Of a stretch of DNA of 64,000 nucleotides, positions 18,390-61,192 are shown one piece after another. The notes beneath the pieces are model-generated. The model ran no database searches, was not told the DNA's origin, and saw nothing but the letters and a program-made list of their open reading frames with translations. Each line of letters starts with the position of its first letter. The stretch's first letter is position 1. Origin of the DNA: an uncultured bacterium (GTDB lineage: Bacteria; Babelota; Babeliae; Babelales; Babelaceae); contig CAVQBR010000001.1 of the NCBI GenBank assembly GCA_963710865.1, forward strand, positions 48,430-112,429, given 5' to 3'. Made by a program: the position numbers and the translations under genes.

Positions 18390-19543
18390 GAGGTACTTTT
18401 TTAACTATGTCCGGGTTTATTAGAGCAGTAAGCTCGTCAAACTTCTCCTTTGAAACAAGATCAATAATACGCTAGCTTGTCAGCATCCTTGCCACACGGC
18501 TATGTCCACCCTGTAGAGCTATTTCTTCTGGCGTTAAGCCATGGCACGAATTGTCAGCACTGGCACAAGCTTGCAATAATAATGTCACAAGTTCGATGGA
18601 GCCTAACTCCGCAGCTCTAAAAAGTGGAGTTTTTCCATTGCATATTACTTCTTTGTTAGCTTGTGCTTGCAAGAGTGTTTTTACTACCTGAACATGGCCT
18701 TGTTCGATAGCAAAATAGAGTGAAGTACGTCCACCATGCGAAGCCTCAATCCGCGCACCATTGCTTATGAGCAGTTTCACCACCTGAGCGTAACCCAAGT
18801 ATGATGCTACGATCAAAGGAACTGATCCCTGCGATGGTTTCTCAGGATCAGCGCCCTTAGACAGAAGAAGAGCAACTACATCTGCATGACCATGCTGTGC
18901 GGCGAGATATAAGGGTATAAACCCATCGCTTTCTAGATTTACGTTCCAAGCAGAACACTCTTTTCAACCAAAGAAAGATCTCCAACGCGAGCAGCATGTG
19001 CCAACTCATCAATATGACGAGATACGCGCATTCTTAACTGTTGAGTATGTTTTTGACGAAGTACGGGGACTACTTGATTATAATCTAACAATGTGGTGGA
19101 ATCATCCTGCTCGTCTAAAGGCCCTCTCTCAGGAATTGCACCAGCAGCCAACAACACTTCTGCGATATCAGAGTACTCAAGAAATAGGGCAAGGTTTAAA
19201 GGCGTTATCATACCCGGAACGTCAGGATCAGACCACAAAAAGTTTTTGTCTGCACCCGCATTTAATAAACATCTAACGATGTCAGCGGAACCCGCAAAGA
19301 ACCTTTATTAGCATCTACCCCAAAATCTATTAAAATCTGCACAGCACGACTCTTATTTTGAGCAATCATCTGCAAGAGAAGCTCCTTACCAGAACTACTT
19401 TCCAGTCGCGACAAGTAGTCAGGGCTATTAGCTATGAGAAAGCATTTTGCCTCATCTGGCATTGTTGCCATTAGAAGCTCGTACAAATAATCGGGGTGAT
19501 GCATTGTTTGCATCTGCATCCCATTTATACTATAAGTAACCAA
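18390..19543 (-). pseudogene. degraded paralog of the 636-aa ankyrin gene
   Basis: Three ORF fragments in different frames (18472..18816, 18939..19238, 19262..19543) each align to 12114..14024. There is a TAG at 18472..18474 where the intact copy reads TAT. The poly-T tract at the 5-prime end is one nt shorter than in the intact copy (6 versus 7). The segment matching the C-terminal roughly 230 aa is missing. Confidence 0.8.
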
Positions 19544-19985: not shown

Positions 19986-22900
19986 TTAGGGCGCAGGAAG
20001 CAACTGAGTTGCTTGAATTCCCCAACCATTTACAACGGCCGCCCATTCTCCGGTACCCCAAATAATTAAATCATTACTCGGATCTGGGGCTAAAGATGAT
20101 TCATCTCCCCAGCGTTGGCCAATGTTCCCATTAGCAGAATTATTTAATGGTCCAAAATTATACGGATTACTTGTATTATTGGTAATCAAAACAGGATCTC
20201 GTGTTGTGCCTAAGGGGTCTGTAGCCTTTCGTCCTGCATAAAAGACATTCGTATAGTCATTGTTACCAGAAACCGTCCCCCCAATAACGAGATCATCATT
20301 TTTATTAGTCATAATAGCTGGAACATAATAAAACTTAGGACTATCAGTTATAGTTGGATCAAAAACCGTCCCCCATTGTACCAGAGCAGGACAGGTTGTC
20401 TCTGTTTCAATGCCACATCCGTTTCCTGTTGGATCTCCAGTGAGATCGAATTGATACCAACGCGTCCCAACACGATCACCAGCTGGATTTCCTGCTCCAG
20501 TGCTATCAACTTGGATGTTGTGGCAGACATATAACTGCTTGTTTCGCACATGAGGGGCATTTAATTTGCTAAATGTTGTTTGTAAATACATAGCATTGAC
20601 ACCACCCAGTTCAAATGTATAGAGATTGCCCTTATGGGGAGCATTTGCTGGATCAGTATAATTAGGCACATCTAACAGAATCTGTTGCCCAAGAGTCGGT
20701 TGAGCCGATCCTGGGTTAAGAATACGAAAGAAGAAGAGTTGATTATAGCTACAGCACTCTGTCGGAGTACTAGGTGGTGGACAAAAGGGAACAATGTTTG
20801 GTAAACAAGGGTATTCAAATCCTACAGCATTTATCAGATACCCAAATTCTGCATGAGGATCAAAATTATCTGCCGGAGGAGTAAATCCAGAGATATTTGC
20901 TAATATTCCCGGGATTACGGTAAAGGCTGGAGAGGTATTACCTGTTATTATAGCGCTGTTAGGAATAATAAGCGCCGATGATCCTAAGAAGTTACCAGTA
21001 GTATCAAAGGTGTCTACGCTAATATACACAGCATTGGAATCAGTTGCTAATTGTTGATAATCAAGAATCGCAGGTCCATCGGCTATAATGTTTTGTGGAA
21101 CTAATTGTTCATTGGTAAATGTAGTAATCGTCCAGACAGTTTCCGGAGTTATTACACCAGAGTCACTCCAGGCAACAATAAGTTCAGTAGGACCACCAAC
21201 TGCGAAGTCAAAGTTTTCGCAACTAAATATCCAACGGTCAAGAAAGCGACTATAATCGATACGAACATCTGCGGCATTAGTTCCAAAAAAACTTGCCGAA
21301 TCAATATTAAGCACCCCGTCAGGCTGTCCGGTAATTTTATCAAAGCTACGAATGGCACCATAGGACATCAGAATATACTGCTTGGGGCCAACCCAACCAT
21401 TTAGATTCTGATTCCCTGCCACGAACGTGGGTTGCACAGTATTACTCACTGTGGCAGCTTCAAAGTTTAACCCAATTATTTGGGCGGGCTCAGAAAGTGA
21501 TTGCTGCAGAGACTTATCCATTACAGGAACCGAAAATCTTCCAGCTTGCGCTACCCTATGAGTCCCCGGAGTTTTTTGAATATTAAGTTTGCGCACGGGC
21601 CTCTGACGTTGAAAATCTTTAACCAAACCAAGAAATTGCTCTCTCGTCACGGGCTGGTCTCTTTGTATCTCTTTTTCGCTCATAGCAGGTATGCTTGAAG
21701 ATGACCCAATGCTATTGCCCGATGCCCCTCCAAGTCCACCGGCGAGACCAATCTGTACACCATTGCCTCCGTTTGGTACCGGTTGTGTACCCGTTATATC
21801 AGTGCCGATATAATTATTAGTAACTATATTGGCCGTAGTAGTAGGAGTACCATAGATGAGAACACCACCCCTCCCATTTCCTGAGATAACATTTTGCATA
21901 CCGGTACCTCCGACAGTGTTTTGGGCATCATTGAGCTCAATACCGTAGAAACTATTTGGAAGAGCCTTCGTTCCACTCACATCGGTACCAATCAAATTTC
22001 CCTGCATGGTATTAAGAATTGAGCCAAATTGCCCAACTATTCCTATATGGATGCCAGAGCCATTACCAGAGATTAGATTCCTTAACATAGTGTTTCCGAA
22101 TGCTGCATCCCCATCTATCTGTATACCCTTATTAGCATTGCCCAAAGGCTTCGTTCCTGTAACATCGGTACCTACATAATTTCGTTGAATAGTAGTCTGA
22201 GCACTATTTCTAATACGAATGCCGACCATGGAATGGCCTGAAACTATATTCCCTTCAAAATCATTCGGCCCCCCTACAATATCATTAAAATCAGTCCGTA
22301 AGCTCAGACCGATTTGGCTCATACCAAGCGAAATAGTACCTGTTCTATCAACACCAACATAATTATTTTGAATGATCGTTCCTTCGCTGAATGTTGAATT
22401 AATGCATCCGCCATCAACGTTGTAGGTATCAACTACATCCCATCCAAAACTGCCTGCTATAAGATTACGATCTGCAAAAAGAGGAGTACCAATCTGAATA
22501 TTAATACAATGTTTGCTACTCCCGCCTGACAAACCAATTCCGGCCCGATTCGCCATCACTCGTGTACCGCTTGCATCTGTCCCGATAAAACAGCCAATAA
22601 TCTTCACGCTGCTAACATTAGCATGGGAAGGATCAAGCAAAATACCACTCGCAAGCCATTGATTAATAACTAATCCTCGAACTATTGACCCATCAACAGA
22701 GGTGTTTGCAAGAGGAGCAAAATGCAATCCATTACCGGTAACGTACCCATCGCCCGTAGTATAGTTGTTACCATTAAGCACAATAGTAAGAACTGCATTA
22801 TCACCTCGAGCCCTCGTATTAACTGCTGAACCCGGTTGGGTATATCCATCGATAGTTACCTGTTGTGTAATAGAATCTAAATCCTGCACTGGCTGTATGG

Positions 22901-23150
22901 TCCAGGTATTTGTGGCAGAATCGTATCCAGGGTCAGATGTCGCAATATTAAAACTGATCGTATCGCCCGTTCCTGCACCTGCATTTACTTGCTGAATTGC
23001 CCAGCGCAATGTCCCGACTGGTGGAGTGAGCGCATCTACTGTTGAAGTAACCTGATACGTTACTGCATGAAGTGGCAACATGGTTGCACACATGAGGCCA
23101 CAGGCAAATGCCGCTTGCACCCAAACGGTTTTATACATGTATAATTTCAT
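19986..23150 (-). CDS. large secreted parallel beta-helix plus propeller-like protein (paralog of 14431..17562)
   Basis: The likely start is the ATG at 23150 (same AAGGAG context; MKLYMYKTVWVQAAFACGLMCATMLPLHA). The N-terminal roughly 200 aa and the C-terminal roughly 450 aa are close to the paralog. The central beta-helix and linker are clearly more diverged. Confidence 0.85.
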   Translation of the reverse strand: MKLYMYKTVWVQAAFACGLMCATMLPLHAVTYQVTSTVDALTPPVGTLRWAIQQVNAGAGTGDTISFNIATSDPGYDSATNTWTIQPVQDLDSITQQVTIDGYTQPGSAVNTRARGDNAVLTIVLNGNNYTTGDGYVTGNGLHFAPLANTSVDGSIVRGLVINQWLASGILLDPSHANVSSVKIIGCFIGTDASGTRVMANRAGIGLSGGSSKHCINIQIGTPLFADRNLIAGSFGWDVVDTYNVDGGCINSTFSEGTIIQNNYVGVDRTGTISLGMSQIGLSLRTDFNDIVGGPNDFEGNIVSGHSMVGIRIRNSAQTTIQRNYVGTDVTGTKPLGNANKGIQIDGDAAFGNTMLRNLISGNGSGIHIGIVGQFGSILNTMQGNLIGTDVSGTKALPNSFYGIELNDAQNTVGGTGMQNVISGNGRGGVLIYGTPTTTANIVTNNYIGTDITGTQPVPNGGNGVQIGLAGGLGGASGNSIGSSSSIPAMSEKEIQRDQPVTREQFLGLVKDFQRQRPVRKLNIQKTPGTHRVAQAGRFSVPVMDKSLQQSLSEPAQIIGLNFEAATVSNTVQPTFVAGNQNLNGWVGPKQYILMSYGAIRSFDKITGQPDGVLNIDSASFFGTNAADVRIDYSRFLDRWIFSCENFDFAVGGPTELIVAWSDSGVITPETVWTITTFTNEQLVPQNIIADGPAILDYQQLATDSNAVYISVDTFDTTGNFLGSSALIIPNSAIITGNTSPAFTVIPGILANISGFTPPADNFDPHAEFGYLINAVGFEYPCLPNIVPFCPPPSTPTECCSYNQLFFFRILNPGSAQPTLGQQILLDVPNYTDPANAPHKGNLYTFELGGVNAMYLQTTFSKLNAPHVRNKQLYVCHNIQVDSTGAGNPAGDRVGTRWYQFDLTGDPTGNGCGIETETTCPALVQWGTVFDPTITDSPKFYYVPAIMTNKNDDLVIGGTVSGNNDYTNVFYAGRKATDPLGTTRDPVLITNNTSNPYNFGPLNNSANGNIGQRWGDESSLAPDPSNDLIIWGTGEWAAVVNGWGIQATQLLPAP

Positions 23151-23794: not shown

Positions 23795-26092
23795 TTATCC
23801 TTCCCAGGGCTTCTTTATTCGTTTACCATTTTTCGCTTTTAGCTCAGCCTGAGAATCAGTTCGTCCCCTGCCTTCGCTCTCCTCTGTCAGCTCAAAGGAA
23901 GTCTCAAAAGAATCTTTTTTTGCCACATGAGATGCTATCAATTTGAGTATTTCTCGATTACGAGTAACTATTGATTTTGGGTCTATATCATCTGCACGCA
24001 CTCCATTGCTCAATAGCAATCTTACAATCGAAGCATGCCCAGCTTTCGCGGCAGCATAAAACGCAGATCTCAACGCCTCTTCGCTGCAAGCATCAGCTGC
24101 CAACAAGCTCTTCACTACTTCCAAATGTCCCCTCTCACATGCAGCATGAAGAGGCGATTCTCCATTACAATCTCTCTGAACAGCCTTATACTTCAAAAGC
24201 CATTCAACAACTCCAACATGATTAAAATAACATGCTGCAAATAATGGTGTTACCCCAGAAGAAGATGGCAGTTCTGGATCAGCGCCTCGAGCCAAAAGTA
24301 TCGCAACGAGGGAAAAGTGCCCCCCAAGTGAGGCAACAAATAAGGCCGTGACTCCATTTTCGTAAGCATTTACATTCCAGTCTGCAGCAACCAAATCGAG
24401 CAACTTTTCATCCCCACTACGAGCAGCCATGAACAAAACACGTATTTGTTTCTCCATGACCTCTTCTAAGCTAGAACTCTGTGCCATGAGTATTAAACGT
24501 GCAGTACGTGCATGCTGGCCAGCAAAAGCAGCGCTCAGGGCCGCAGTTGTACAGTATCCTGCTCCGGCTTTCAACAAAAGCTCTACCACCGAATTATGCC
24601 CATGCCGAGCAGCCACAATCAACGGAGTATCGGTGCAAGGTGGAATACAAGGAGTATGCACTGAAGCTTCAGCTTGCAAGAGGAATTCAACCACATCCAC
24701 CCTTCCTCGTTCTGATGCTAACACAAGCAAAGTACGTCCATCACTACAGTGTTTATTTACCATATCTGGTGTTACCAATGGCTTGAGATAATCAAAATGA
24801 GGAGCATCCACGAGCAGCAGTCCGGCAATCCTGTTGATGCGATATTGTTCGAGCAACTTCAATATTTCATAAAACCCATTTTTCCGAGCAATCGATTCTG
24901 GAGTTACGCCATTACAAGAGCTTGTAGAAGCATTCGCCTGCAATAACAAACGTACAATTTCAATATTGCCGATCTGAACAGCCTTAAACAGAGGCGTCTC
25001 TCCTTTTGATGTAGTTTCCTTTTTCACCCCAGCTGCTAATAATTGAGCAACTACTTGAGCATGCCCTGCTTTGACTGCACCAAAGAGAGGCGTTTCTTCT
25101 TTATACACTGCCTCCGCGTCTACACCGTACTTGAGGAGCAGACTGACTGTCTCAACATGTCCATTTTGGCATGCTAACAATAAGGGCGTCTCCTGATTAT
25201 AAGGTATAGCAGGATAAGCGCCTCTCTTCAAAAGCAAGTCAACAACCGGAGCATGACCTGCAAAAGCTGCTAGGCACAATGCAGCTGGTCCATTTTCTTT
25301 TATATTCCATTCTTCTGCGCACCTCTCAACCTGTTCTACTTCACCACCACTAGCAGCAGACAGCAAAGTGATTGTTTGCTTTATACGGTACTCAACAAGT
25401 CGTTCGTTGGAATAAGCTGCTAGCACCTGCACTATGTCACTATAAGGCTTTTTAATCAATACAGACGCAGCAGTACCATTTGCAAATGCAATATTTAATG
25501 GTGAGCGCCCCTTGTACTTTTTATCCGGATCAGCACGATTATTTACCAATAACTTCACAACCGCTAAATGACCAAAATAAGCAGCAATATACAATGGTGT
25601 CATTCCAGAAGTTTCCACAGGATCAGGAAAATACAACGCATTGATCTGGGCGCCCCTAGACAACAAGAGGTCAACAATTTCTACTAATCCCTTGCTTGCA
25701 GCCACGTGCAAAGGTCTCATGAAAGATGCAGTTCCTTCATTAACGTCTACTCCTAATTCGACCAGGATCCTTACAACCTTAATATCTTCTTCTTTAACCA
25801 TTTTCAAAAGCAGTGTTTCACCGTTAGAATTCCTTAAAGTACTCAAAGTACTCAGAGCAAAACTATTTGAAATCAGCTCCTTTTTTTGATCGTCAGGCAG
25901 TGACGATTTTAACAGAGCATGTACATAGTGATAAGTATACAGATGCTCATAGTCCAGCAATTGCTGTAAAACCATAGCATCGATACTCGCATACGCGAGC
26001 AACTGAAGCAGGAGGATTGTTCCTATTGCATTAAACTTTTGTAGTTTCTTGTTCAGAATAATAAACCTCACTTGATAATTCGGTGAACCCAC
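23795..26092 (-). CDS. ankyrin-repeat protein (765 aa) with probable signal peptide
   Basis: About 20 ankyrin-like units (G.TPL..A...GH..VV..LL). The N-terminus KKLQKFNAIGTILLLQLLAYASIDA is signal-like. The start codon is uncertain (non-ATG start in the track). Confidence 0.85.
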   Translation of the reverse strand: MGSPNYQVRFIILNKKLQKFNAIGTILLLQLLAYASIDAMVLQQLLDYEHLYTYHYVHALLKSSLPDDQKKELISNSFALSTLSTLRNSNGETLLLKMVKEEDIKVVRILVELGVDVNEGTASFMRPLHVAASKGLVEIVDLLLSRGAQINALYFPDPVETSGMTPLYIAAYFGHLAVVKLLVNNRADPDKKYKGRSPLNIAFANGTAASVLIKKPYSDIVQVLAAYSNERLVEYRIKQTITLLSAASGGEVEQVERCAEEWNIKENGPAALCLAAFAGHAPVVDLLLKRGAYPAIPYNQETPLLLACQNGHVETVSLLLKYGVDAEAVYKEETPLFGAVKAGHAQVVAQLLAAGVKKETTSKGETPLFKAVQIGNIEIVRLLLQANASTSSCNGVTPESIARKNGFYEILKLLEQYRINRIAGLLLVDAPHFDYLKPLVTPDMVNKHCSDGRTLLVLASERGRVDVVEFLLQAEASVHTPCIPPCTDTPLIVAARHGHNSVVELLLKAGAGYCTTAALSAAFAGQHARTARLILMAQSSSLEEVMEKQIRVLFMAARSGDEKLLDLVAADWNVNAYENGVTALFVASLGGHFSLVAILLARGADPELPSSSGVTPLFAACYFNHVGVVEWLLKYKAVQRDCNGESPLHAACERGHLEVVKSLLAADACSEEALRSAFYAAAKAGHASIVRLLLSNGVRADDIDPKSIVTRNREILKLIASHVAKKDSFETSFELTEESEGRGRTDSQAELKAKNGKRIKKPWEG

Positions 26093-31387: not shown

Positions 31388-32140
31388 TTTTTCCCTTTAA
31401 TAAGGACAAACTTTCTACTTTCTTTCCCTTCATGAGGGATAAAATACCATATTTTTTTCCCTCTCGCAAGGAAAGAGGCAAAGCTTCTGCCACTAAGATC
31501 CTCACAGAAGGCCTTTACTAGTTTTTTGGTCACCGATCTGATTACTGAAAGCTGACAAGGGAGGGCTTCTGATGAGAAGTTTCTCGCAAAGACTTCATGG
31601 ATCCCAAGTGAGCGATTTCTCACATTCAGTTCAAAGTAGAGGCTGCCAAAAGCAGACACATTTTACTTTTTCTTCCCTCTATGAGGGACAAAATATCAGC
31701 TTCTTTCCCTCTTGCAAGGAAAGAGTACAAGCTTTTGCCCGTACGGTCCTCGCACAAGGCTTTTGCCAGCCTTTTGATCGCTGATCAGATGTCTGCAGGC
31801 TGATTTAACATAGAAGTTTCTCGCAAAGACTTCATGGTCCTCTTGTAGGCGATTTCTCACATTCAGTTCAAAGTAGAAGCTGCCAAAAGCAGACATATTT
31901 TAATTTTTCTTCCCTCTATGAGGGATAAAATATCATTTTCTTTCCCTCATGCAGGGAAAGAGGTCGCGATTGTGTCACTAAGGTCCTTGCACAAGGCCTT
32001 TACGATTCCTTTGATAGTCGATCATATGTCTGACAAAAAAGACAAGCGCTTAGAAATTTTTTGCAAAACGAAACACTGCACGGACCCCTTTTGGTCGGTT
32101 CCTTACATTAAATTCAAAATAGAGGTTGCCAAAAATGAAC
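31388..32140 (-). repeat. tandem array (periods about 246 and 237 nt): the real 3-prime end of the OMP gene plus two degenerate copies, each followed by a pair of hairpins
   Basis: FGNLYFEFNVRNR (real gene) is echoed by FGSFYFELNVRNR (from 31896) and FGSLYFELNVRNR (from 31659). Each unit ends with TCTTTCC(C/T)T-loop-AGGGAAAGA and TCCCTCAT(A/G)(G/A)AGGGA hairpins. Confidence 0.8.
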
Positions 32141-38517: not shown

Positions 38518-40631
38518 ATGAATACGCATCAACTTTTATGGTGCTTATTAGCACTGTATCCAAGCATAGAGGGAGTAACCCAAATTGTTACGACAACATC
38601 GGATATACCAGTAAGCGGCCAGCTTACGTTAAGGGAAGCAATCAATGCTGTGAATGCGTCACAGGACGCTACTAACTTTATCACGTTTGCTATTCCAGGT
38701 ACAGAAGTTCAGATCATAACTCCTTTGAATACCTTACCTCAGATTGTTAAGAAAGTTACCATAGATGGGTACACACAGCCCGGCTCCGTAAAGAATAGTT
38801 CTACAGATCGCAGCAGTAATGCTCACCCTACAGTAGTCATTCAGGGTGATTTAATTAATCAAGTGACTGGAGAAATTAATCCAGCACCACAAACAACCTT
38901 CGGCCTGCGCTTTGGCGTTGCGGTATCTCCTGATGGCACCGTGCTCTCAACTTCCGAAGGATCAACGATTAGTGGCCTTGTCATTAATAATTGTTTTAGT
39001 GCGGGTATCGAAATACTCGGTGCAAGTTCTCTCACCATCAAGGGAAACTTTCTTGGAACTGATGATACCGGTGAAATCGTCATCCCAAATGGTTCAGCAA
39101 TTCGCATCGCTCCTGCCTCGGAATCACTACCAGCAAATACCTGCTGCATAGGTGGAGGCGACTCTGCTGATAAAAACCTTATCGCAGGTACCCTCTATCC
39201 CTTTAGAAATGGAGGGGTATTTCTTGCAGGGATCAAACAAAACGATAATCCGTAATAATATTATTGGAACTAATAAGGAAGGAACTGAAGCCTTAGGAAG
39301 TACAGACTTTGGTATCTTCATCTCTGGAGATTCTTCAACGACCCGCATTGACCATAATCTCATTTCCGGCTGTTCATACGCAGGAATTAACATTCGCAAC
39401 TCAAGTGGAACTCTCATTACCGATAATTTCATTGGGACAAATGTAAGTGGAACAAGCTCTCTCGCCAACGGTACGGGCATCATATATACAGGCGGGAATG
39501 TGATATTCTGACGATGACACCATCATTGGTGGATATAATCCTGCAGAACGCAATATTATTTCTGGAAATGCTGGACATGGTATTTTGTTAGCAAGCTTTG
39601 GGAAGTTTATGTATTCTTACAATGATCGGGTATACCAAACGTATATCTATAATAATTTTATCGGTGTCGATGTCACGGGCCTTGCAGCCCTTCCTAACGC
39701 CGCTTCTGGGGTATATCTTGGTCCGAGTGCCTACACTGAGCTAGAAAAAAACATTATTTCTGGAAATGGAGAACATGGGGTAACCATTGCCGAAGATAGC
39801 TATGGCACAACCCTTGGAGGTAACTTCATAGGAACAGATAGCTCAGGATCTGGTGCAATACCAAATAGCGGCGATGGAATTTGGATCGGAAAAGCGCAAG
39901 GTGCTGCATCCGACACGTATATTTCGGACTTATCTGATAGAGGTGGTAATATTATTTCAGGAAATCGAGGAAATGGCGTCAGTATTAGATCATTTTCAGA
40001 CTACATCACCATTCAAAATAATCTCATTGGGAGAGCAAAGGATACTACCGAACTAGGTAATGGTGGCGCCGGTATCTTCATCCAGTGTTCCTCAGATAAT
40101 CAAATAGGAAATGACTATTATGTAGACGATAAAATTGAAGGAAATACGATAAGCGCCAATGGCGGTCCAGGAGTCATTATCCTTGACCCTACAAACAATG
40201 ATGCATCGGTAAGAAATACCATTCTCTCCAATAGCATTTACTGTAATGGTGGTAAGGGCATTCAGCTTGGCGCTTCTTCCTGTAAAAATCTTTCTGGGCC
40301 TAATAAATGCCTCCATCATCCAATAATTACTTCAGTTACTACGGACGGTACATCAACGCTCATCAAGGGAGAGCTTCGTAATATGGAAGATGGATATCAT
40401 AATTATTACAAAGTTCAATTATTTGATACAAGCGCAACCTGTATCTCCACAGCCAATGGAGAGACCTTTGTCAAAGAGCTCTCTGTAGATGCGGATGGAA
40501 AGAAGCATGTTTTATTTGAAGAACGCATAGATCGTGTTCTGCAATCGGTAAGCGCAACCGCTACCGGTTCGAGCGGTAATACGTCTGAATTGAGCCCCAA
40601 TGTAAATGCTGTAATTGTCGATACCCTTTAA
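38518..40631 (+). pseudogene. parallel beta-helix repeat protein (third family member), broken by two single-nt frameshifts
   Basis: Three consecutive ORFs (38518..39255, 39152..39511, 39585..40631) all carry the same repeat family. The N-terminus VTTTSDIPVSGQLTLREAINAVN ... ITFAIPG ... VTIDGYTQPG parallels the two big paralogs. The frame changes lie near the GGG run at about 39229..39231 and the TT at about 39505. Sequencing error cannot be excluded. Confidence 0.7.
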
Positions 40632-40640
40632 GGAGAACCT

Positions 40641-42119
40641 ATGTTTAAAGCTCTACTTATGACTGCTTGCTTAACTGCACAAGCACAAAATGTAACAATT
40701 CCTTTAGCAGTTACCGCTCTCGTACAAGATAAGACGCCTGCTCCACCAGGAGCACCTCTTCCTTCCGCCATAGGGGGCGCTGTCGGCACAACACAGATTG
40801 TGGTCTGCACAAATTCAGGCGTTAAAAGCTTAGATAAGATAACTGGGCTACCAGATAATGTGCTCAATATAGCCGTCTCTTCTCTCTTTAATGAAAGCGG
40901 CTACGCCATTACGGGCTGTCATATTCGTTTTGATGCATATACTCAGCGATGGATTGCTATCGGAATTTTGAGTAATCCTGGAGATGGCAATAGTAATGTG
41001 CTCTATATCGCAGTAGCTGATACAAGCACGACTAATGGTACTATCACTCCTTATACCAGCTGGCAGGTTTTCAGCTTTAATCCAGATAACATCCCCAATG
41101 GGCCGGGCAGTTGCCAAACTGACGAAATTCTCTATCTAAGTTCACCTACGCTCGCCATTGATGCTAAAGCTGTTTATATAGGCGCCAATATGCTTTCAAC
41201 TGAGGGTACGCTTCGGCGGGCCACTGCGTATGTTATACAGAAAGAATCACTGTTTCAACCTGATAAGTACGCAGTTAAGATTGTAGCTTTCAATAATATA
41301 TCATCCTATGAACTCTTTTATGATCTGCAGGGAGTCGATACGCTCAGTGACCCCAATCCTCCCTTTGGTGGATTCATTGCAACAAGTATCAAAAGACCAA
41401 CAAGTACCTTGGGCTATTACAAAATCCTCAACCAGGACTTTGTCACGAGTAGCAAGTTTCCTGAGGGACTGCCACGGATTGAAGGGCCGTATCTCATTGA
41501 GGGAGGTCCTCTGATAGATACCGATACCGTCTACGCTCCTCATAAAGGCAACCTTGGTGGCTCAGAAGGCCTCATACAATCTGCAACCGGAAAATTACTC
41601 ACGGCCTCTATGCAAAAAAAGCCAGGATCAGACGACTTTCTCCTTCATACAACACTATGTGCGCCAGTCAATGGACAAGGCACAGGAGTAACACCAACCG
41701 ATCGGTTAGGAATCTATTGGTATGAAATTGAAAATCTAGCCACTAAGCCGCAATTAACTGATAATTGTGGGGTTATCTATGACCCCAGCTCCACTAATCC
41801 CAACTCCTATTACTTGCCTGCAATTATGACTGATAAAGAGGGGAATATGACCATTAGTTGCTCATCTTCTGGCAATGCTAGATTCATAGAAGCAGTTACG
41901 TTCGGCAGAAAATATACTGATGCACCTGGTCAACTTGGGCCTGAACAACTCATACAGGGCAGTAATGCAGCGTATAATTTTGAGTATCCTCTTCAACACT
42001 GGGGAGACTATACCTATACCAGCCTAGATCCAGTTAACCAAAAAGATATGTATACCTTCCAACAATATACTCACAAGGCCAATACATGGGGAATTATAGT
42101 GGCTCAATTGCAGGTATAG
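40641..42119 (+). CDS. stand-alone homolog of the C-terminal propeller-like domain of the big beta-helix proteins
   Basis: It starts 9 nt after the beta-helix ORF stop. VKSLDKITGLPDNVLNI ... IRFDAYTQRWIAI ... AIDAKAVYIG ... HWGDYTYTSLDPVNQKDMYTF aligns with IRSFDKATGKPDGVLNI ... ITYSRFLDRWILS ... ATDVNAVYIS ... QRWGDLSSLAPDPSNDLIIW of 14431..17562. Confidence 0.75.
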   Translation: MFKALLMTACLTAQAQNVTIPLAVTALVQDKTPAPPGAPLPSAIGGAVGTTQIVVCTNSGVKSLDKITGLPDNVLNIAVSSLFNESGYAITGCHIRFDAYTQRWIAIGILSNPGDGNSNVLYIAVADTSTTNGTITPYTSWQVFSFNPDNIPNGPGSCQTDEILYLSSPTLAIDAKAVYIGANMLSTEGTLRRATAYVIQKESLFQPDKYAVKIVAFNNISSYELFYDLQGVDTLSDPNPPFGGFIATSIKRPTSTLGYYKILNQDFVTSSKFPEGLPRIEGPYLIEGGPLIDTDTVYAPHKGNLGGSEGLIQSATGKLLTASMQKKPGSDDFLLHTTLCAPVNGQGTGVTPTDRLGIYWYEIENLATKPQLTDNCGVIYDPSSTNPNSYYLPAIMTDKEGNMTISCSSSGNARFIEAVTFGRKYTDAPGQLGPEQLIQGSNAAYNFEYPLQHWGDYTYTSLDPVNQKDMYTFQQYTHKANTWGIIVAQLQV

Positions 42120-42772: not shown

Positions 42773-43402
42773 TTACTTGTTCGTTTCGGGGAGCAACAAA
42801 GGCATAATCTCATAGAGAGAATTTTTATTCGCAATAGTGTAAGGGATAGCCTTACGCTTATCGGCTAGCGATTTATCTGCACCAGCAGCTAATAACAATT
42901 GAATCACTTGAACATGGCTAGACATCGCTTGCGCAAGTGCCGGGTCACGTTCATCAAAACGTTTTTCCTTTATAGCCAGCATCGTTGCATCATTTCTTGC
43001 TCTAGCAGCACCCTTAACAGCAGCCAATAAGGGAGTTCTGCCAAAATAATCACCTTTGTTTACATCTACCCCAGCATCTAATAATATACTCACAGCATTA
43101 CCAAGACCTTGGTAGGCGGCCATATGCAAAGCCGTTTGACCATTATAAAGACCCTTGTTCCAGGCCCCTGCTTCCAGCAACAATTGAACTGCTTCTGTAC
43201 TGCCTTTATTAGCTGCTTCAAAAAGCAGTTTATGCCCATTTGCCGTATTTTCGTTAAATGGGACCTGCAAGTCACGCAAGATTTGGAAAGCAGCTTCCAT
43301 AGCTTCTGATTGGGCATCTCGCTGATCTATTACTTCCGCTCCATACAGAGCTCCACAGCTCAAAAAAGATAAAAGGGCTAATGCCCCTACTGATGTATTC
43401 AT
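42773..43402 (-). CDS. small secreted ankyrin-repeat protein
   Basis: The likely start is the ATG at 43402 (GGGGGA SD; MNTSVGALALLSFLSCGALYG signal peptide). It has 4-5 ankyrin units (GQTALHMAAYQGLGNAVSILLDAGVDVN, GRTPLLAAVKG ...). Confidence 0.85.
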   Translation of the reverse strand: MNTSVGALALLSFLSCGALYGAEVIDQRDAQSEAMEAAFQILRDLQVPFNENTANGHKLLFEAANKGSTEAVQLLLEAGAWNKGLYNGQTALHMAAYQGLGNAVSILLDAGVDVNKGDYFGRTPLLAAVKGAARARNDATMLAIKEKRFDERDPALAQAMSSHVQVIQLLLAAGADKSLADKRKAIPYTIANKNSLYEIMPLLLPETNK

Positions 43403-43620
43403 AGGAAATCCCCCTAAAAATTTAAACATGTTAATAATATCTAATAGAATTATACTAGAGACAGAATCTGGTGTCAAATTCTTTGGCATTCGTCACTTTT
43501 TTCTCATCTCTTGACAGAAGCATGACTGATCACTGATACTCACCTAAAGACATCTGCAATCGAAGCTTCGCTAGCGATAGTGCGGTGACCACTGAAATAC
43601 GCATAGAACGGTAATTAACT

Positions 43621-45392: not shown

Positions 45393-45612
45393 AAGAAAAC
45401 TCCTTTTTATTATATGGAACCCTATTATTTTACATGGAGGCATCAGTTGTAGCTGAATTCTACCTCTATTATAACCATACTGCATTCAGGCTTGAAAAGT
45501 CAACGATTTGAAAAAAAAATTGCAAATCATTTCTAAATGTTCTCAGAGAAATTGAGGGTAATAAACAGGCATCAGCAAGAGATGTTTCTGAGGCAGACAA
45601 GTCTCGCAGACC

Positions 45613-46228
45613 TTACAATCCAGCTGATGACCTGACCACGCGAGTTAACTCATCAGCACCAATAATACCCGCATGTACTTTTGACAGACCATCATCAAGC
45701 ACTGTCGCCATACCTTCTTTGCGTGCTTGCTTACAAAGATCATCGTACGCAGGGTGGTCGACAAGTGCCTGTTTAAGGTCAGAAGAGAGCCTTAGAAACT
45801 CAAAGATACCGATTCTCCCTTTGCTCCTCGTGTAGTTACAAGTTGAGCAGCCTTTACTTACGAAGGTCCGCTCTAGTCCTTGTCTCTGTTCTTCAAGAGT
45901 CAGTTCCCGTTCAGAACGACAATCTAGGCAGAGGCGTCGAGCCAAGCGCTGAGCTAAGACCCCGGCCAACGGTCGCTGCTATAAGGTAGGGAGGAATGCC
46001 CATATCTATGAAATGTATAAAGGTCCCGGGGGCGTCGGAAGTATGGAGCGTACTAAGCACCAGATGACCAGTAATGGCAGCTTGTACAGCGACGTGCGCA
46101 GTCTCAGTATCACGTATTTCATCAATCATAATAATACCGGGATCTTGACGAAGAAAGGAACACAAGCCCGTGCAAAGGTCAATCCGATCTCCGAAGCAAC
46201 CTGCGTTATTCCTTCTATAGCGAGTCAA
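45613..46228 (-). pseudogene. frameshifted 3-prime fragment of a GspE/PilB-type ATPase gene (decayed copy of 52170..53333)
   Basis: ORFs 45613..45969 and 45911..46228 lie in two frames and align to the C-terminal roughly 200 aa of the intact gene ([37 protein letters not shown]; [12 protein letters not shown] ... GIIGADELTRVVRSSAGL). There is no N-terminal half and no Walker A. Confidence 0.85.
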
Positions 46229-47875: not shown

Positions 47876-47960
47876 GTCGAGTAGTCGGGAATCGTCGGCT
47901 CGAGCTGACGATTCCCAACCCTCTAAGAACCGTACGTGAAGCTTTCGATTCATACGGCTC
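47876..47960 (-). ncRNA. group II intron domains V and VI
   Basis: Domain V is a 34-nt hairpin with the AGC triad and a GAAA tetraloop. Domain VI is a long stem with a single unpaired A (the A of GACTAC) at position -7 relative to the proposed 3-prime splice site. Confidence 0.8.
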
Positions 47961-49446
47961 AAGCCCTTGTAACGTCATTTCCTTCGTGACGCGGCAGCTT
48001 CTGGTTCGAGGTCTTCCTGCCTTCGAGATACGATTTCCAAGAGGGGTCATAGGGGTTGGCTTCGCCTTTTATCAGTCTATGCCGCTTGATCGGCACATCT
48101 GAGGCTTGGAACAACCTTATTGTCTTCTCGATTGCTCGCGTCACGTAGGTAGTTTGAAACACCCAGTTTCGACTTCCCATGCTTCCAAAGTATTTCTTTT
48201 TAATCCATCCTTTTGATTTATTAGGATGTCTTCGAAGACACCACCTCCACACCATTTCGAATATTCGATAATCCACATATGCGAATGTTCTTTTGCTACA
48301 GACATGCCTGTGATAGTTTGCCCATCCCCGGATAGCCTGGTTGAGCAACCTTATCAGCGTAGCTTGTTCTGATTGCCGATGTTGGTTGATGAGTTCTTGA
48401 ATATTGCGCAGGAACGTTAAGATATTCCTCTTGGAAGGCTTTGTGAGAGTTTTTCCTCCCTTATACCTTCGAAGGTTCTGCCCAAGAAAGTCAAACCCAT
48501 CGGAGATGTGCGTTATGAAGGTCTTCTCGGGAGAGAATACCAACCCACGTTCTCGCAGGAAATCCGCCACCACTGGCATGACTTGATTCTCAAGCAGTTC
48601 CTTAGAGATACCTGTGATTATAAAGTCATCACAGTACCGCACTAAATGGACCTTCGGACGTGGCGTCCGCGAAGGAAACAGCTTCCTTAGCAGGGCCTCT
48701 AATCCATTGAGAACAAAGTTTGCAAGGGTGGGGGATATGACTCCGCCCTGGGGCGTTCCCGCGTTTGCGTGGTAAAAGACGTTCTTCTCCATGTATCCCG
48801 CCTTGAGCCATTTTCGGAGCACTACCCTGTCCATTGGTGCATGTTTAAGTAGCCATTCGTGGCTGATGTTGTCAAAGCAACCTCGAATGTCAGCCTCCAT
48901 TAGATACACGGGCCCGTGCCTGCTTGCGAGTAGTAGGTGGCACCTATCCATTGCATCTGCTGTTGATCTGTATTTCCTGAACCCGTATGAGCTCGGATCT
49001 GACAGTGTTTCAACCACAGGGTCGAGCGCCAGGAGATAGAGCGCTTGCATTGCTCTGTCATGCATCGTCGGGATTCCCAATGGTCGCATTTTACCATTGG
49101 CTTTGGGAATGTACACACGTCGTAGCGGTTGGGGTTTATACCCTCTGCTACGCAGTTGCTTTATAGCCATGCACATTTGAAATGGGGTTACCCAGACCTC
49201 TCTATCAACACCAGGAGTTTTACTTCCCGAGTTGCCAGTTACACGTTCGACGGCTAATACCTTGCCGCTGTACGAGGTTGTAAGGAGGCGTTGCAAAGCT
49301 TTCACTTTGTTCCACTTTCCTTCCTCCACTGCCTTTACGATACGCGCTTGGATTCGATTCACAATCCGTTCGGCCTTATTCTTATCAATAGACTTCCAGC
49401 CCGTCGTTTTATGGAAAGCTGCACCAGTACCGCTAGATACCATCAT
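47959..49446 (-). CDS. group II intron-encoded reverse transcriptase/maturase (no obvious HNH endonuclease domain)
   Basis: 495 aa. RT blocks [47 protein letters not shown] and [11 protein letters not shown] (YxDD). Maturase X motif [10 protein letters not shown]. The C-terminus ends [17 protein letters not shown] with no Cys/His HNH motifs. The stop codon abuts domain V. Confidence 0.9.
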
Positions 49447-50019
49447 TTGCTATTGCCTCCTTAGTCGATTACCCAAGTTATCTCGTAATCTGGACCATAC
49501 GAAAAGTCTGCTCGCTTTCGCGCAGGATGATGTTTCAATCCTTATCCAGTCCATTACAGGCCGTCATTCGCTTTCTTTCGCGCTCCTCTACCTGCAGCTA
49601 ATTGCTTGCCTACAGGCTTACCACGTTCAGTATTCAGACCAGACCAGGTTAGGTTCTTCCTTTGCGCCGACGGCCATTATGTCTGCGAGGGGGGACAGAC
49701 TAGCCCAACCTCCGAGCCGTTCACCTTTTTTGGTCCAAGCATAACAGCATCTTTTGCTTGTTGCAAATAACGACGCTTAGTCAGAAGTTCACATACGTTA
49801 ACCTTACTGATCAACCCTAGATCCCGACCGCCTTGATGCTAGCAGTCAACACCTTTCCTTACAGGCCGGTATTCGCTTTCGCGAGGCTGCATTGTACCGA
49901 GAGCTTTGGACCGACAGGTTGCCCCGTGCGCCCATCTCGGTAGGGTACTATTGGCAGAACAATAGATTACATCATACTCCTTTTCGTGTAATAGCTCTGA
50001 ATACCGCTTCGTGTCGCAC

Positions 50020-50717
50020 AGTCTGTTTTTGCTACCTTTCTTGGTTTTTGAAAATTGCTTTTGCAGATACTTAACTTTAGAAAGTTGGGTTTTCAAAAAT
50101 TTAGGATTAGGGATCAGCTCACCTGAAGAAAGAGTAGCAAAGGTGAGGAGCCCAACATCGAGTCCAATTACATGCGATTCTCTGATTTCTACCTCAGGGA
50201 CTTCTTTTTCTATCTGACAGGTTAAATTAACATACCAATGATTGCGTTGCCGTTTAACTACAGCCTGTTTGATTGTCCCTTCAATTTCTCGAGATTTTAT
50301 AAAACGTACCCAACCTATTTTGGCTAGCAAAACATGATTATTATCAAGCTTTATATGTTGAGGAAATTTGATAGAATCATTAACGTATTTTTTTCTATAG
50401 CCGGGAAAGCCGTGGTCTCTTCCCTTTTTTCGTTCACGATAGAAACTCTTAATACCACGATCAAGATCTTTAATAGCCTGTTGAAGTGCTTGGGAGGGTG
50501 CATCAGCCAACCATTCAAAAAGAAACTTCAGCTCAGGAAGCTCATTTGCCATGTCAACATATGTTAGATAGTTTCCATCGCTCGCCGCTTCTTTTGCTCG
50601 ATTGAGCATATGGTTAAAAACAAATCGACTGCAACCAACTGCTTGAGCAATTTTTTCAAGCTGATCTTTGGTGAGCTTTAAACGATATTTAAATGTTATT
50701 ACAAGCGTCTTTGTCAT
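50020..50717 (-). CDS. tnpB: TnpB (IS200/IS605 OrfB) exon 1: N-terminal/WED-REC region and RuvC-I
   Basis: The likely start is the ATG at 50717 (MTKTLVITFKYRLKLTKDQLEKIAQAVGCSRFVFNHML, the typical OrfB N-terminus). RuvC-I is in HVIGLDVGLLTFATLS. The exon ends ... KKGSKNR + CT. The rest of track ORF 49839..50780 is read-through into intron RNA. Confidence 0.85.
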
Positions 50718-51037
50718 TGTTTTCTTTTGCTGAAATTTTCTTATATGCGATAAACTATCACCATATGAGACCAATGTCAACTCTCAGTTTAGACTATGAT
50801 TGATCTCATGATGACATTGACATACAGAAAATCCGATCCGGCCTTTTAGAAGGCTTAAATGCTAGGCTATTCAAAAAAAATGCCATATTTGCATTATTTA
50901 CCTGAATTGCGTGAAACGTATATAAGTTCTTAGCATATTCGGAATATCCATCCGATGCTCCAGCTGTGACAGACTCACGTGCCTTGAAAATACGATGGTT
51001 CATGCTCTCCAGTAACGCAATTTATGAATGTTTCTAC

Positions 51038-52169: not shown

Positions 52170-53333
52170 TTACAATCCAGCTGATGACCTGACCACGCGA
52201 GTTAACTCATCAGCACCGATAATACCAGCATGTACTTTGGCCAGACCATCATCAAGCAATGTCGCCATACCTTCTTTGCGTGCTTGCTTACAAAGCTCAT
52301 CGTACGAAGGATGCTCGACAAGTGCCTGTTTCAGGTCAGAAGAGAGCTTTAGAAACTCAAAGATACCGATTCTCCCTTTGCTCCCCGTGTAGTTACAAGG
52401 TGCGCAGCCTTTACTTACAAAGGCCCGCTCTAGTCCTTGTCTCTGTTCTTCAAGAGTCAGTTCCCGTTCAGAACGACAAGCCATGCAAAGGCGCCGAGCC
52501 AAGCGTTGAGCTAACACCCCGGTAACGGTCGCTGCTATAAGATAAGGAGGAATGCCCATATCTATGAGACGTATAAGGGTCCCAGGGGCGTCGGAAGTAT
52601 GGAGCGTACTAAGCACCAGATGTCCCGTAAGGGCAGCTTGTACGGCAACGTGTGCAGTCTCAGTATCACGCATTTCACCAACCATAATAATATCGGGATC
52701 TTGACGCAGAAGGGAGCGCAAGCCCCGTGCAAAAGTCAATCCGATCTCAGGAGCAACCTGCGTTTGTGTTATTCCTTCTACAGCGTATTCAATCGGATCT
52801 TCCAAGGTAACGCTGTGCTTGTGAGGCGTATGAACCTGAGAGAGAAGTGCATGTAGAGTGGTCGTTTTACCACAGCCAGTTGGACCTGTTACGAGAAAGA
52901 AGCCCTGTGATGTTTCGCCTAGCTGAGCAAGGGCAGTACAAAGCTCAGGAGCAAGACCAAGTTCTGTCAAACGTAAGTTGGCTTTGGAGCGATCAAGAAG
53001 CCGCAGAACAACTGTTTCACCATAGAGGCTAGGAAAAGTAGAAACACGAATATCGAGCATCTGCCCAAAAAAGGTGCACGCGAATTTCCCATCTTGAGGA
53101 AGTCGGTGCTCGGTAATATTTAATCGTGCAAGGACTTTTATACGGGCAATAGTTTGAATACCCGGGACAACATCTATTGAACGCTCAGGAAAAAGGAGAC
53201 CATCAACACGAAACCGTACCCTAAATGCTTCCGGGTACGGTTCAACATGTATATCTGAAGCTCGAGCACTGAGCGCTCGCTTAATAAGCTCGTCGAGCAA
53301 CAAGGGAATATCGTGTATTACGCTAGCTTCCAT
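52170..53333 (-). CDS. GspE/PilB-family type II/IV secretion ATPase (short form, 387 aa)
   Basis: Walker A in GPTGCGKTT, Asp box in TLEDPIEY, Walker B in DPDIIMVGEMRD, His box in [12 protein letters not shown]-terminal tetracysteine CMACRS ... CAPCNYTG. Confidence 0.9.
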   Translation of the reverse strand: MEASVIHDIPLLLDELIKRALSARASDIHVEPYPEAFRVRFRVDGLLFPERSIDVVPGIQTIARIKVLARLNITEHRLPQDGKFACTFFGQMLDIRVSTFPSLYGETVVLRLLDRSKANLRLTELGLAPELCTALAQLGETSQGFFLVTGPTGCGKTTTLHALLSQVHTPHKHSVTLEDPIEYAVEGITQTQVAPEIGLTFARGLRSLLRQDPDIIMVGEMRDTETAHVAVQAALTGHLVLSTLHTSDAPGTLIRLIDMGIPPYLIAATVTGVLAQRLARRLCMACRSERELTLEEQRQGLERAFVSKGCAPCNYTGSKGRIGIFEFLKLSSDLKQALVEHPSYDELCKQARKEGMATLLDDGLAKVHAGIIGADELTRVVRSSAGL

Positions 53334-54876: not shown

Positions 54877-55758
54877 CTAATGCACTAGCTGTAAACAGCG
54901 ACTCCAACGTATCTTCTTCCAAAAAGCGAGTGGATTTTTAATAAGATCCACAAACCACCAGGATTCAGTGCTATCCATCGACCAAATCCTAAACACTATC
55001 CTCCCATGAATTAATTTTCCATCTAAGGGACCCCACTCTCGTGAATCTCCGCTGCCCAGTCTATTGTCTCCCATAACCCAGTACTGATTTTCACCAAGAG
55101 TAATATCAAAAATATCTGTACCTGAATGTACAGGCGTTCCTGGATATAAAATTGTTTGAGGTTCCATAGTTTGCGCATTTAAGATAATAAGATGCGGATT
55201 TATTTTATAAAAAGGTTGCTTATCCCAGGGAACGTTAGGATCAAATGAAAGACTGTCATACGTACGCTCTTGCGAATCACGACTGTGCTCGTGCGGTAAT
55301 GATCGCCAGACATAGATAAGTGGATACTTATTAATATAGGCAGACTCATCTAGTTTCTTACCATTTACATAGACCACAGGATGACCATCTTCAATTACTC
55401 CCTTAACTCTGTCTCCCGGCAGTCCGATAATACGTTTCGTCCAATTTGAGATGTGCCACGATGCATAGCGCTGCCACACATTGACCGCAGAATTGGTTGA
55501 GTATGGATAGCGAGGCTCATTAAACGCTATTATTTCTCCACGCTGAGGTTTTCTCACCCAATATGAAAGCTTGTCAGCAAAGAATCGTTCACCGATGAGT
55601 AAGGTAGTTTCCATAGAACCGCTCGGAACCTGGTACAAACCAAAGCCAAAGGTACGTATAACAAAAGCGATAGGTAAGATGACAAAAATCAATTCGAACG
55701 GTACCCGAACGAAAGCTACATCGTGCCATTTACCTAAAATCCGCTTTAATAGTTTCAT
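54877..55758 (-). CDS. lepB: signal peptidase I (copy 1)
   Basis: Catalytic Ser box YQVPSGSMETTL, box D/E GDNRLGSGDSREWGPL, N-terminal TM anchor. About 90 percent aa identity by eye to 56202..57080. Confidence 0.9.
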   Translation of the reverse strand: MKLLKRILGKWHDVAFVRVPFELIFVILPIAFVIRTFGFGLYQVPSGSMETTLLIGERFFADKLSYWVRKPQRGEIIAFNEPRYPYSTNSAVNVWQRYASWHISNWTKRIIGLPGDRVKGVIEDGHPVVYVNGKKLDESAYINKYPLIYVWRSLPHEHSRDSQERTYDSLSFDPNVPWDKQPFYKINPHLIILNAQTMEPQTILYPGTPVHSGTDIFDITLGENQYWVMGDNRLGSGDSREWGPLDGKLIHGRIVFRIWSMDSTESWWFVDLIKNPLAFWKKIRWSRCLQLVH

Positions 55759-56201: not shown

Positions 56202-57080
56202 TTAATGCACAGGCTGTAAACAGCGGCTCCAGCGAACTTTTTTCCAAAACGCAAGTGGGTTTTTAATAAGATCGACAAACCACCATGATTCAGAACTATC
56301 CATAGACCAAATCCTAAACACTATCCTCCCGTGAATTAACTTTCCATCTAACGGGCCCCAGTCTCGTGAATCAGAGCTCCCTAATCTATTATCTCCCATG
56401 ACCCAATATTGATTTTCACCAAGAGTGATATCAAAAATATCTACCCCTGAGTGAGCAGGAGTTCCTGGATACAAGATTGTCTGTGGCTCCATAGTTTGTG
56501 GATTTAATATAATAAGATGGGGGTCTATTCGATAAAAAGGTTGCTTATCCCACGGTACCGCAGGATCAAATGAGCGACTATCATAATTGCGCTCTTGCGA
56601 ACGACGATGTTCATACGGTAATGATCGCCAGACATAGATAAGGGGATACTTATTAATATAGGCAGACTCATCTAATTTCTTACCATTTACGTAGATGACA
56701 GGATGACCGTCTTCAATCACTCCTTTTACTCTATCTCCTGGCAGTCCAATAACACGTTTCGTCCAATTTGAGATGTTCCATGATGCATAGCGCTGCCAGA
56801 GATTGACCGTAGAATTGGTTGCGTAGGGATAGCGAGGTTCATTAAAAGCTATTATTTCCCCACGTTGTGGCTTTCTCATCCAATACGAAAGCTTATCTGC
56901 AAAGAATCGCTCACCTACGAGCAAGGTTGTTTCCATAGAACCGGTAGGAACTTGGTATAAACCAAAGCCAAAAGTACGTATCACAAAAGCGATAGGTAAG
57001 ATAACAAAAATCAGTTCGAACGCTCCTCGAACAAGAGCTACATCGTGCCATTTACCTAAAATCCGCTTAAATAATTTCAT
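56202..57080 (-). CDS. lepB: signal peptidase I (copy 2)
   Basis: YQVPTGSMETTL and GDNRLGSSDSRDWGPL. Same architecture as copy 1. Confidence 0.9.
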   Translation of the reverse strand: MKLFKRILGKWHDVALVRGAFELIFVILPIAFVIRTFGFGLYQVPTGSMETTLLVGERFFADKLSYWMRKPQRGEIIAFNEPRYPYATNSTVNLWQRYASWNISNWTKRVIGLPGDRVKGVIEDGHPVIYVNGKKLDESAYINKYPLIYVWRSLPYEHRRSQERNYDSRSFDPAVPWDKQPFYRIDPHLIILNPQTMEPQTILYPGTPAHSGVDIFDITLGENQYWVMGDNRLGSSDSRDWGPLDGKLIHGRIVFRIWSMDSSESWWFVDLIKNPLAFWKKVRWSRCLQPVH

Positions 57081-61185: not shown

Positions 61186-61192
61186 GAAATCC

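Follow-up and report, generated by a model that had tools for sequence, protein, structure and literature searches.

A secreted beta-helix protein and a propeller of an unnamed family, encoded side by side or fused, as a candidate extracellular module of an uncultured Babelaceae bacterium

We analysed a stretch of 64,000 nucleotides (positions 48,430 to 112,429 of contig CAVQBR010000001.1, GenBank assembly GCA_963710865.1) from an uncultured bacterium of the Babelaceae (Babelota), hereafter called the window. Three loci in it encode a right-handed parallel beta-helix together with a domain of about 480 amino acids (aa) that can be assigned to a large secreted propeller family without a name. 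At two loci the parts form a single protein, and at the third they are encoded by two adjacent genes. We consider it fairly probable that these loci descend from an operon of two Sec-exported partners, a beta-helix protein and a propeller, which fused once and whose products act together outside the cell, most likely on a glycan or surface target. The find may be called a two-component or fused secreted module that has not been described before, the fold class of which is known and the propeller family of which is not annotated by profile libraries.

The two fused proteins, A and B (Table 1), each consist of a signal peptide, an N-terminal cap (GTLRWAIQQVN, DGYTQPG), beta-helix repeats, a basic linker and the C-terminal domain of ~480 aa. 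In A the signal peptide covers residues ~1-29, the beta-helix ~30-482, the linker ~483-568 and the propeller ~546/570-1043. A and B are 78% identical over their full length, the linker alone 30%. An earlier note on this DNA had described both copies as single polypeptides of this composition and the third locus as separate open reading frames (ORFs) lying 9 nucleotides (nt) apart, and the ORFs and their translations confirm it; at ~1040 aa, however, the fused proteins are not the giants they were taken for. A tblastn search over the window found exactly these three loci. The 492-aa propeller of the split locus shares 28% identity with the C-terminal ~480 residues of the fused proteins (E 1e-31), and the intact 703-aa form of its beta-helix neighbour, which we return to below, 34% with fused residues 27-467 (E 9e-45). 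Judged from these alignments, the homology between split and fused parts is far beyond chance. The AAGGAG just upstream of the propeller start codon implies that the two genes would be co-transcribed and translationally coupled; this arrangement of stop, spacer and RBS-like motif recurs in nine other split pairs. The break between them had been placed exactly at the linker of the fused proteins. This is correct on the propeller side, where the starts correspond, but on the beta-helix side the alignment stops at residue 457 of 703, and the break there is therefore not strictly homologous. Beyond residue 457 the 703-aa protein continues with additional coils and then a tail of ~110 aa without counterpart in the fused proteins, which may form a beta-sandwich cap. 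A similar C-terminal tail is present in the partner beta-helix protein of L005, one of two related loci treated below.

The pair recurs well outside the window. Searched with an alignment of the fused proteins (A2), species-representative genomes yielded seven loci. Two metagenome-assembled genomes (MAGs) with MFD-prefixed isolate names account for four of these, a Candidatus Dependentiae MAG for one, and MAGs labelled 'uncultured Pseudomonadota' for the remaining two; an earlier genome scan with a single fused protein as query had given no confirmed relative. One locus (L012) is cut by the contig end, and the six that are readable (L007-L011 and L013) contain nine pairs, with three pairs in tandem at L011 and two at L013. 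By six-frame analysis, beta-helix and propeller lie in different frames or are separated by a stop at all six. In each of the nine split pairs the two genes are neighbours on one strand, -11 to 46 nt apart, and every one of the nine junctions has the same build: the beta-helix ends in GGxxNxIG(S/G/N) followed by TAA, the spacer holds an AGGA-type ribosome-binding site (RBS), and the propeller ATG follows. These split propellers start with a hydrophobic signal peptide (12-residue Kyte-Doolittle maximum 2.1-2.7), a basic stretch and the conserved QTIGLNFTAATVSN. Full-length fused proteins number at least 12; their linkers (window copy B and nine metagenomic relatives, P0162-P0172) measure 55-77 aa, contain 11-15 lysines and arginines and are without a hydrophobic core. 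At two further loci, L005 and L006, the propeller adjoins a CSLREA-like beta-helix gene in reversed order, the propeller coming first. Both of these loci also carry a third conserved beta-helix-like gene of ~800 aa with faint Beta_helix matches (L005:5291..7705, minus strand; L006:2..2326, plus strand), for which no counterpart was found in the 8-46 kb section of the window. A metagenomic contig (L017:10001..23096) bears three tandem fused paralogs (1031, 1030 and 1003 aa), followed on the opposite strand by two 590-aa genes encoding beta-helix only; a separate contig from that sample carries a fourth fused paralog (P0162).

In a neighbour-joining tree of the propeller domain, rooted on members of the wider family, the fused proteins are monophyletic (200/200 bootstraps) and nested among split lineages, and their sister is a split pair (L008a, 200/200 bootstraps). 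The split copy of the window falls into a deep clade together with L005 and L006 (199/200 bootstraps). Since the fused forms make up one clade inside the split forms, the simplest history would be that of a two-gene operon which fused once, the third locus of the window being a deep paralog in the ancestral form. Of the fusion and fission that the earlier note had envisaged, only a single fusion is thus retained. We propose that the ancestral operon encoded a Sec-exported right-handed beta-helix of the CSLREA/NosD-like repeat type and, directly after it, a Sec-exported seven-bladed propeller. One lineage would then have lost the stop codon, the spacer and the signal peptide of the propeller, yielding a chain of ~1040 aa in which the basic linker of 55-77 aa would tether two folded parts. 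Finally, the fused gene would have multiplied into tandem paralogs, two of which are found in the window.

Both parts also appear to be inherited together. In a mirror-tree comparison over 22 pairs, the distance matrices of beta-helix and propeller correlate with r = 0.83, a value reached by none of 2000 permutations. The two parts therefore show what is expected of a Rosetta-stone pair, being separate or fused, adjacent where separate and co-inherited: nine core pairs, two deep-clade loci and the split locus of the window stand against at least 12 fused proteins. It had been suggested that beta-helix and propeller make up one functional module, and the nine further adjacent split pairs, the two deep-clade adjacencies, the fusions and the correlation of distances support this; we infer that the two would indeed work as one. 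Of the two, conservation is consistently higher in the propeller (84% identity between L011a and L011b, as against 55% for the beta-helix). When A is compared with B, the beta-helix has a ratio of non-synonymous to synonymous substitution rates (dN/dS) of 0.25 and the propeller one of 0.13, with dS at ~0.6-0.7, and both fused domains are under purifying selection. With one fusion and purifying selection on both domains, this is a maintained family and not the rapidly rearranging one it was thought to be. At the 5' ends of the two genes (17110..17562 and 22700..23150, the first ~150 codons), dS between A and B drops to ~0-0.05, an indication that the fused paralogs have recently undergone gene conversion in the stretch for signal peptide and N-terminal cap.

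Table 1. Positions of the beta-helix/propeller loci in the window and of their parts.
Feature	Position	Strand	Details
Fused paralog A	14431..17562	-	1043 aa, single ORF, ATG at MKLYMYKT
Fused paralog B	19986..23150	-	1054 aa, single ORF; architecture as in A
Beta-helix gene of the split locus	38518..40631	+	Signal peptide, N-terminal cap (LTLREAINAVN, DGYTQPG), parallel beta-helix repeats
ORF fragments of the split beta-helix gene in the window	38518..39255, 39152..39511, 39585..40631	+	As in the ORF listing
Extra C-terminal domain of the split-type beta-helix protein	40314..40628	+	~110 aa, HHPIITSVTTDG...SATATGSSGNTSELSPNV; absent in fused proteins
TAA stop (40629..40631) and 9-nt spacer	40629..40640	+	AAGGAG at 40630..40635, overlapping the stop
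Stand-alone propeller gene	40641..42119	+	492 aa, own signal peptide MFKALLMTACLTAQAQ, ATG at 40641
First frameshift, single-A insertion	39219	+	Relative to three other assemblies
Second frameshift, single-A insertion	39503	+	Relative to three other assemblies

Profile searches place the first part among the right-handed parallel beta-helix repeats (PF13229, PF05048, TIGR03804). The fragments of the split gene score 40.6 bits with Pfam Beta_helix PF13229 (cut-off 25.9) and 37.1 bits with NosD PF05048 (cut-off 23.6), and the intact 703-aa protein 46.3 bits with TIGR03804 (cut-off 19.45). Fused A exceeds the cut-off of the latter with 20.2 bits and stays just under the 23.6 of NosD with 22.6 bits. 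Relatives that share 30-40% identity with the N-terminal half of the fused proteins number in the thousands and go by the names 'parallel beta-helix repeat protein' or 'CSLREA domain-containing protein'; the window proteins resemble this group in their repeat profiles and signal peptide. Their N-terminal xTLRxAIxxxN cap is likewise similar to the CSLREA motif, yet it scores below the cut-off of TIGR04214 (25 bits): the 703-aa protein reaches 16.9 bits (E 0.004, residues 24-46) and the fused proteins give no match at E <= 0.1. Two relatives (P0221 and P0249) do exceed this cut-off. To our knowledge, neither a partnership nor a fusion with this propeller has been described for the CSLREA/beta-helix repeat family.

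The propeller part could not be placed in a named family, nor had the earlier note assigned it to one: it matched no Pfam family even at E <= 10 (BNR, BNR_2 and sialidase included), no NCBIfam model, and nothing in sequence-profile searches of the PDB with three alignments (A1, A2 and A3). A word-indexed search recovered just 11 relatives. An exhaustive profile search retrieved 22,902 cluster representatives (50% identity) at E <= 1e-3, of which 8,449 lie at E <= 1e-30. A hidden Markov model built from 23 other members, with the window proteins excluded, recovers fused A at 3e-86, fused B at 4e-84 and the split copy at 4e-78, and the assignment of all three to this un-named large secreted family is therefore secure at the level of sequence profiles. 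The window copies and the wider family have in common the motifs GxVGPxQ, RW, DxxAVYI, RWY and RWGD...DP. Among the best 150 of the 22,902 representatives, the domain is N-terminal, starting in the first 203 residues of proteins of up to ~2,400 aa, with Ig-like, FG-GAP, BACON or sorting domains behind it, whereas in the window it is C-terminal to the beta-helix or encoded beside it. Partner domains in the wider family comprise Ig-like, FG-GAP, BACON, P-domain, CarboxypepD_reg, Calx-beta and dockerin domains, as well as PEP-CTERM and T9SS tails. We found nothing relevant in the literature on Dependentiae beta-helix proteins, the motif RWGDY or seven-bladed PEP-CTERM propellers. There is thus an annotation gap of ~22,900 cluster representatives for which these searches gave no matching Pfam or NCBIfam model or solved structure.

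AlphaFold2 models the 492-aa protein with a mean predicted local distance difference test (pLDDT) score of 77 and a predicted template modelling (pTM) score of 0.84, and DSSP counts 28 strands in the model. This number is consistent with seven four-stranded blades closed by an N-terminal strand, and would fit seven blades rather than six. In a Foldseek comparison with the PDB, pseudaminidase, human Neu2, KDNase and trypanosome sialidases lead (E ~4e-8, probability 1.0); WD40, semaphorin and GH43 propellers follow close behind. The template modelling (TM) score of the top match is 0.39-0.43 (<=0.54 with the shorter target as reference length), and the top 20 matches show 7-11% identity. An impression that the domain is like a sialidase or BNR propeller accordingly survives as a loose likeness of fold, and membership in the BNR family does not. 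The best-matching sialidase-fold propellers (GH33, pseudaminidase 2w38, KDNase, GH93, paramyxovirus H/G and PfCyRPA) are extracellular and serve catalysis and host-receptor binding. The window propeller differs from the sialidases in having no Asp-boxes and no BNR profile match, and probably seven blades instead of six.

For fused A as a whole, AlphaFold2 gives the beta-helix (residues 30-470) a pLDDT of ~90 with regular short strands, the propeller (570-1040) ~80 and the linker (484-568) 23-49, at an overall pTM of 0.58. The fused protein is thus predicted to consist of two folded bodies with a disordered, flexible tether between them. Foldseek matches of this model include CylK (a beta-roll and a propeller), phage tailspikes, A-modules of alginate C-5 epimerase, DFA-IIIase and GH93, and further henipavirus attachment proteins, sialidases and semaphorins. 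The solved folds closest to the beta-helix are those of alginate epimerase A-modules, tailspikes and DFA-IIIase; those closest to the propeller are of sialidases, GH93 and paramyxovirus attachment proteins.

All parts carry signal peptides and are predicted to be exported. CSLREA-domain proteins are recurrent substrates of type II secretion in Acinetobacter (PMC9245377). The two folds, like the domains that accompany the propeller in the wider family, would point to recognition of carbohydrates or surfaces outside the cell, and the likeliest role, by analogy, may be that of a two-part extracellular module for the binding or processing of glycans or of a host surface. We propose that the partners act jointly outside the cytoplasm, either in a 1:1 complex or on a common extracellular polymer, and that glycans or glycoconjugates of a host (protist) or cell surface would be their most likely target. 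The beta-helix, which evolves faster, could provide a variable platform for binding the substrate or surface, and the more conserved propeller a second binding or a catalytic unit. Ankyrin-repeat genes flank all three loci of the window (12114..14024, 23795..26092, 42773..43489 and fragments at 18472..19304) and recur within 10 kb of five homologous loci (L004, L008, L010, L011 and L013); together with the Dependentiae relative, these neighbours would fit a protist-associated lifestyle. A bolder version, possible but in our view doubtful, is that the large propeller family represents an extracellular enzyme or lectin class of a new kind, which gained an obligate beta-helix partner in a protist-associated lineage; the two would then make up a two-component (and, after fusion, single-chain) effector or adhesin system for the host surface, not described before, that expands in tandem arrays. 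The undescribed adhesin or effector class proposed in the earlier note is a related candidate.

Several points weigh against a joint role on glycans or surfaces. The model of the fused protein has no confident interdomain contact, as its pTM of 0.58 indicates. Moreover, all its fold matches have TM-scores of at most 0.5 whichever normalisation is used, at ~8-13% identity, and the link to carbohydrates therefore rests on an analogy of fold class. The central polar pocket that the wider family probably has is deduced from strand positions. Neither family comes with an experiment or a solved structure, the PDB sequence-profile searches being empty. The four wider-family loci that were checked are all without a beta-helix neighbour, and the partnership is thus specific to one clade. 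Finally, the case for host association is built on the ankyrin-repeat genes beside the loci and on a single relative, which is labelled Dependentiae.

Whether the module would bind its target or also process it can be weighed from the residues of the propeller. R103, R355, R423, D174, Y179 and D456 (numbering of the 492-aa protein) are conserved across the whole family, and the 'RW', 'D..AVY', 'RWY' and 'DP' positions are retained in all copies. The wider family has, in addition, invariant polar residues at the starts of blades or inner strands (PPD, DPR, DYP, DDRL and the R of RWGDY). At these positions the split copy reads PSA, GCH, SSP, TGKL and HWGDY; the fused copies have RGD or NQN, keep DPR, and continue with SSAL and with RWGDL or RWGDE. 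With family-invariant polar residues replaced in the window copies, most extensively in the split copy, we lean to binding over catalysis, and the window copies, above all the split one, may have drifted toward a binding role. That both parts are instead catalytically active, as a novel system of glycoside hydrolases or lyases, appears unlikely to us. It would agree with the strictly conserved acidic and basic residues at the blade starts of the wider family, with the dockerin of one wider-family member and the BACON domain of another, and with the nearest folds being those of enzymes; the exchanges of PPD for PSA or RGD, DPR for GCH, DDRL for TGKL or SSAL, and RWGDY for HWGDY or RWGDL speak against it. 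As a separate observation, the RGD at the PPD position of the family is encoded at 15862..15870 (residues 565-567 of fused A); copy B has NQN there, and the motif is therefore not conserved.

It is still less probable, and quite improbable overall, that beta-helix and propeller are independent neighbours which travel together by tandem duplication or shared regulation and have no common target, their fusion being a neutral accident. The want of confident contact in the fused model and the wider-family propellers without beta-helix neighbours would both be compatible with such a history. Against it, the genes stay adjacent where identity is as low as 26-30% and in MAGs of both labels, Dependentiae and Pseudomonadota, the distances of the partners correlate as described, and the fusion has been kept in at least 12 proteins with purifying selection on both halves.

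A beta-helix protein of the periplasm and a seven-bladed propeller also go together in NosD and NosZ, the catalytic domain of NosZ being such a propeller. By this precedent, the beta-helix would be a chaperone that loads a cofactor into the propeller, as part of a maturation pair. The Pfam NosD repeat model does match the window's beta-helix repeats, and the 28 strands of the propeller model would fit seven blades, as in NosZ. However, the NosD subfamily model TIGR04247 (NosD_copper_fam, cut-off 300) gives 13-17 bits on the beta-helix proteins of L005 and L006 and is not listed for the 703-aa protein of the window at E <= 1. No profile match to NosZ, NosF, NosY or a cupredoxin was obtained in the proteins and neighbours scanned, the nosZFYL context is absent, and the contig gene tables list no Nos family, the neighbours being MFS, GntR, MerR and ankyrin genes. 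Furthermore, the conserved residues are R, D, Y and W, without histidine ligands or a histidine cluster, and a permanent 1:1 covalent fusion would be odd for a chaperone. We therefore regard a maturation pair as very improbable.

The beta-helix gene of the split locus requires a comment of its own, because in the window it is broken by two frameshifts. Their presence had been noted before, and they can now be described as single-A insertions seen only in the assembly of the window. In three other assemblies (L001, L002 and L003) the gene is intact, with an ORF of 703 aa; the three assemblies that share an identical 492-aa protein, and in all of which the upstream gene is whole, are ENA ERZ25039481 (282-kb contig), ENA ERZ25039529 and Logan ERR11523659. 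The broken products (245 and 340 aa) are found only on the 187,835-bp NCBI/ENA contig, and the intact protein on Logan and ENA contigs. Base-by-base comparison revealed a synonymous G>A at 39126 that accompanies both insertions, and apart from these three changes the window is identical to L003 over 13 kb and to L001 over 19.7 kb, as far as a mobile-element region. They fall inside 378 bp of one gene, and neither insertion is in a homopolymer. This clustering is odd and unlike random sequencing error (with three events in 19.7 kb, a rough estimate is ~1e-3). Both frameshifts are peculiar to the assembly or strain of the window, and on the sequences compared they may be either a real lesion or a consensus error. 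Programmed frameshifting at the two sites was considered and rejected because the gene is simply intact in the other assemblies. A further concern, that the split copy as such might be an artefact of assembly, can be set aside: the split itself is genuine and ancestral, and only the two internal frameshifts are assembly-specific. Nor is it credible that the third locus is a fused gene recently broken at the linker and now degrading, a reading that could draw on the two frameshifts and on the clustering of three changes in 378 bp of an otherwise identical 19.7 kb, given that the locus sits in the deep split clade (199/200 bootstraps) outside the fused one, shares just 28-34% identity with the fused proteins, has a propeller with a proper RBS and signal peptide and a beta-helix with an extra C-terminal domain, and is intact in its beta-helix gene in three other assemblies. 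More generally, apparent pseudogenes in MAG-derived sequence deserve checking against other assemblies.

Outside the NosD system, the chlamydial Pmp proteins and other autotransporter beta-helix adhesins invite comparison, as they too are multi-copy, tandemly duplicated beta-helix surface proteins of host-associated bacteria. The C-terminal domain of the window proteins differs in that it models as a soluble propeller and not as a beta-barrel. An assignment to the chlamydial Pmp/autotransporter group, suggested by GC content and the beta-helix, was rejected: the translations contain no GGA(I/L/V)/FxxN repeats and no barrel or Pmp match in Pfam.

Other features of the window are listed here for completeness. 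It holds no rRNA and, as tRNA genes, only tRNA-Leu and tRNA-Cys; a promoter and terminator scan of the split locus gave counts at chance level. A group II intron (47876..49966, minus strand; Rfam RF00029 and RF02012) contains a reverse transcriptase ORF (47959..49446), and its 5' end is overlapped by an IS605 OrfB-type transposase gene (49839..50780). Differences between assemblies concentrate at 50.3-51.1 kb. An intact gene for a T2SSE-family ATPase (52170..53333, 387 aa) is preceded 6.5 kb upstream by a partial copy (45609..46205, ~92% identical), which is present as two fragments in other assemblies. Between an AAA_14/DUF4143 and a Phenol_MetA_deg gene lies a tandem repeat (31575..32001; 237-bp unit, 1.8 copies, 86% matches). 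Tandem signal peptidase I (Peptidase_S26) paralogs (54877..55758 and 56202..57080) adjoin a Bat-like cluster (58098..63159) with BatD, a TPR protein, two VWA proteins and an M23 peptidase.

Two uncharacterised secreted families are thus linked by a fusion, by a conserved operon and by co-evolution, and a function found for one of them would constrain that of the other. In uncultured bacteria that are rich in ankyrin-repeat genes and probably associated with protists, such multi-copy exported proteins may be reasonable candidates for interaction with surfaces or with the host.

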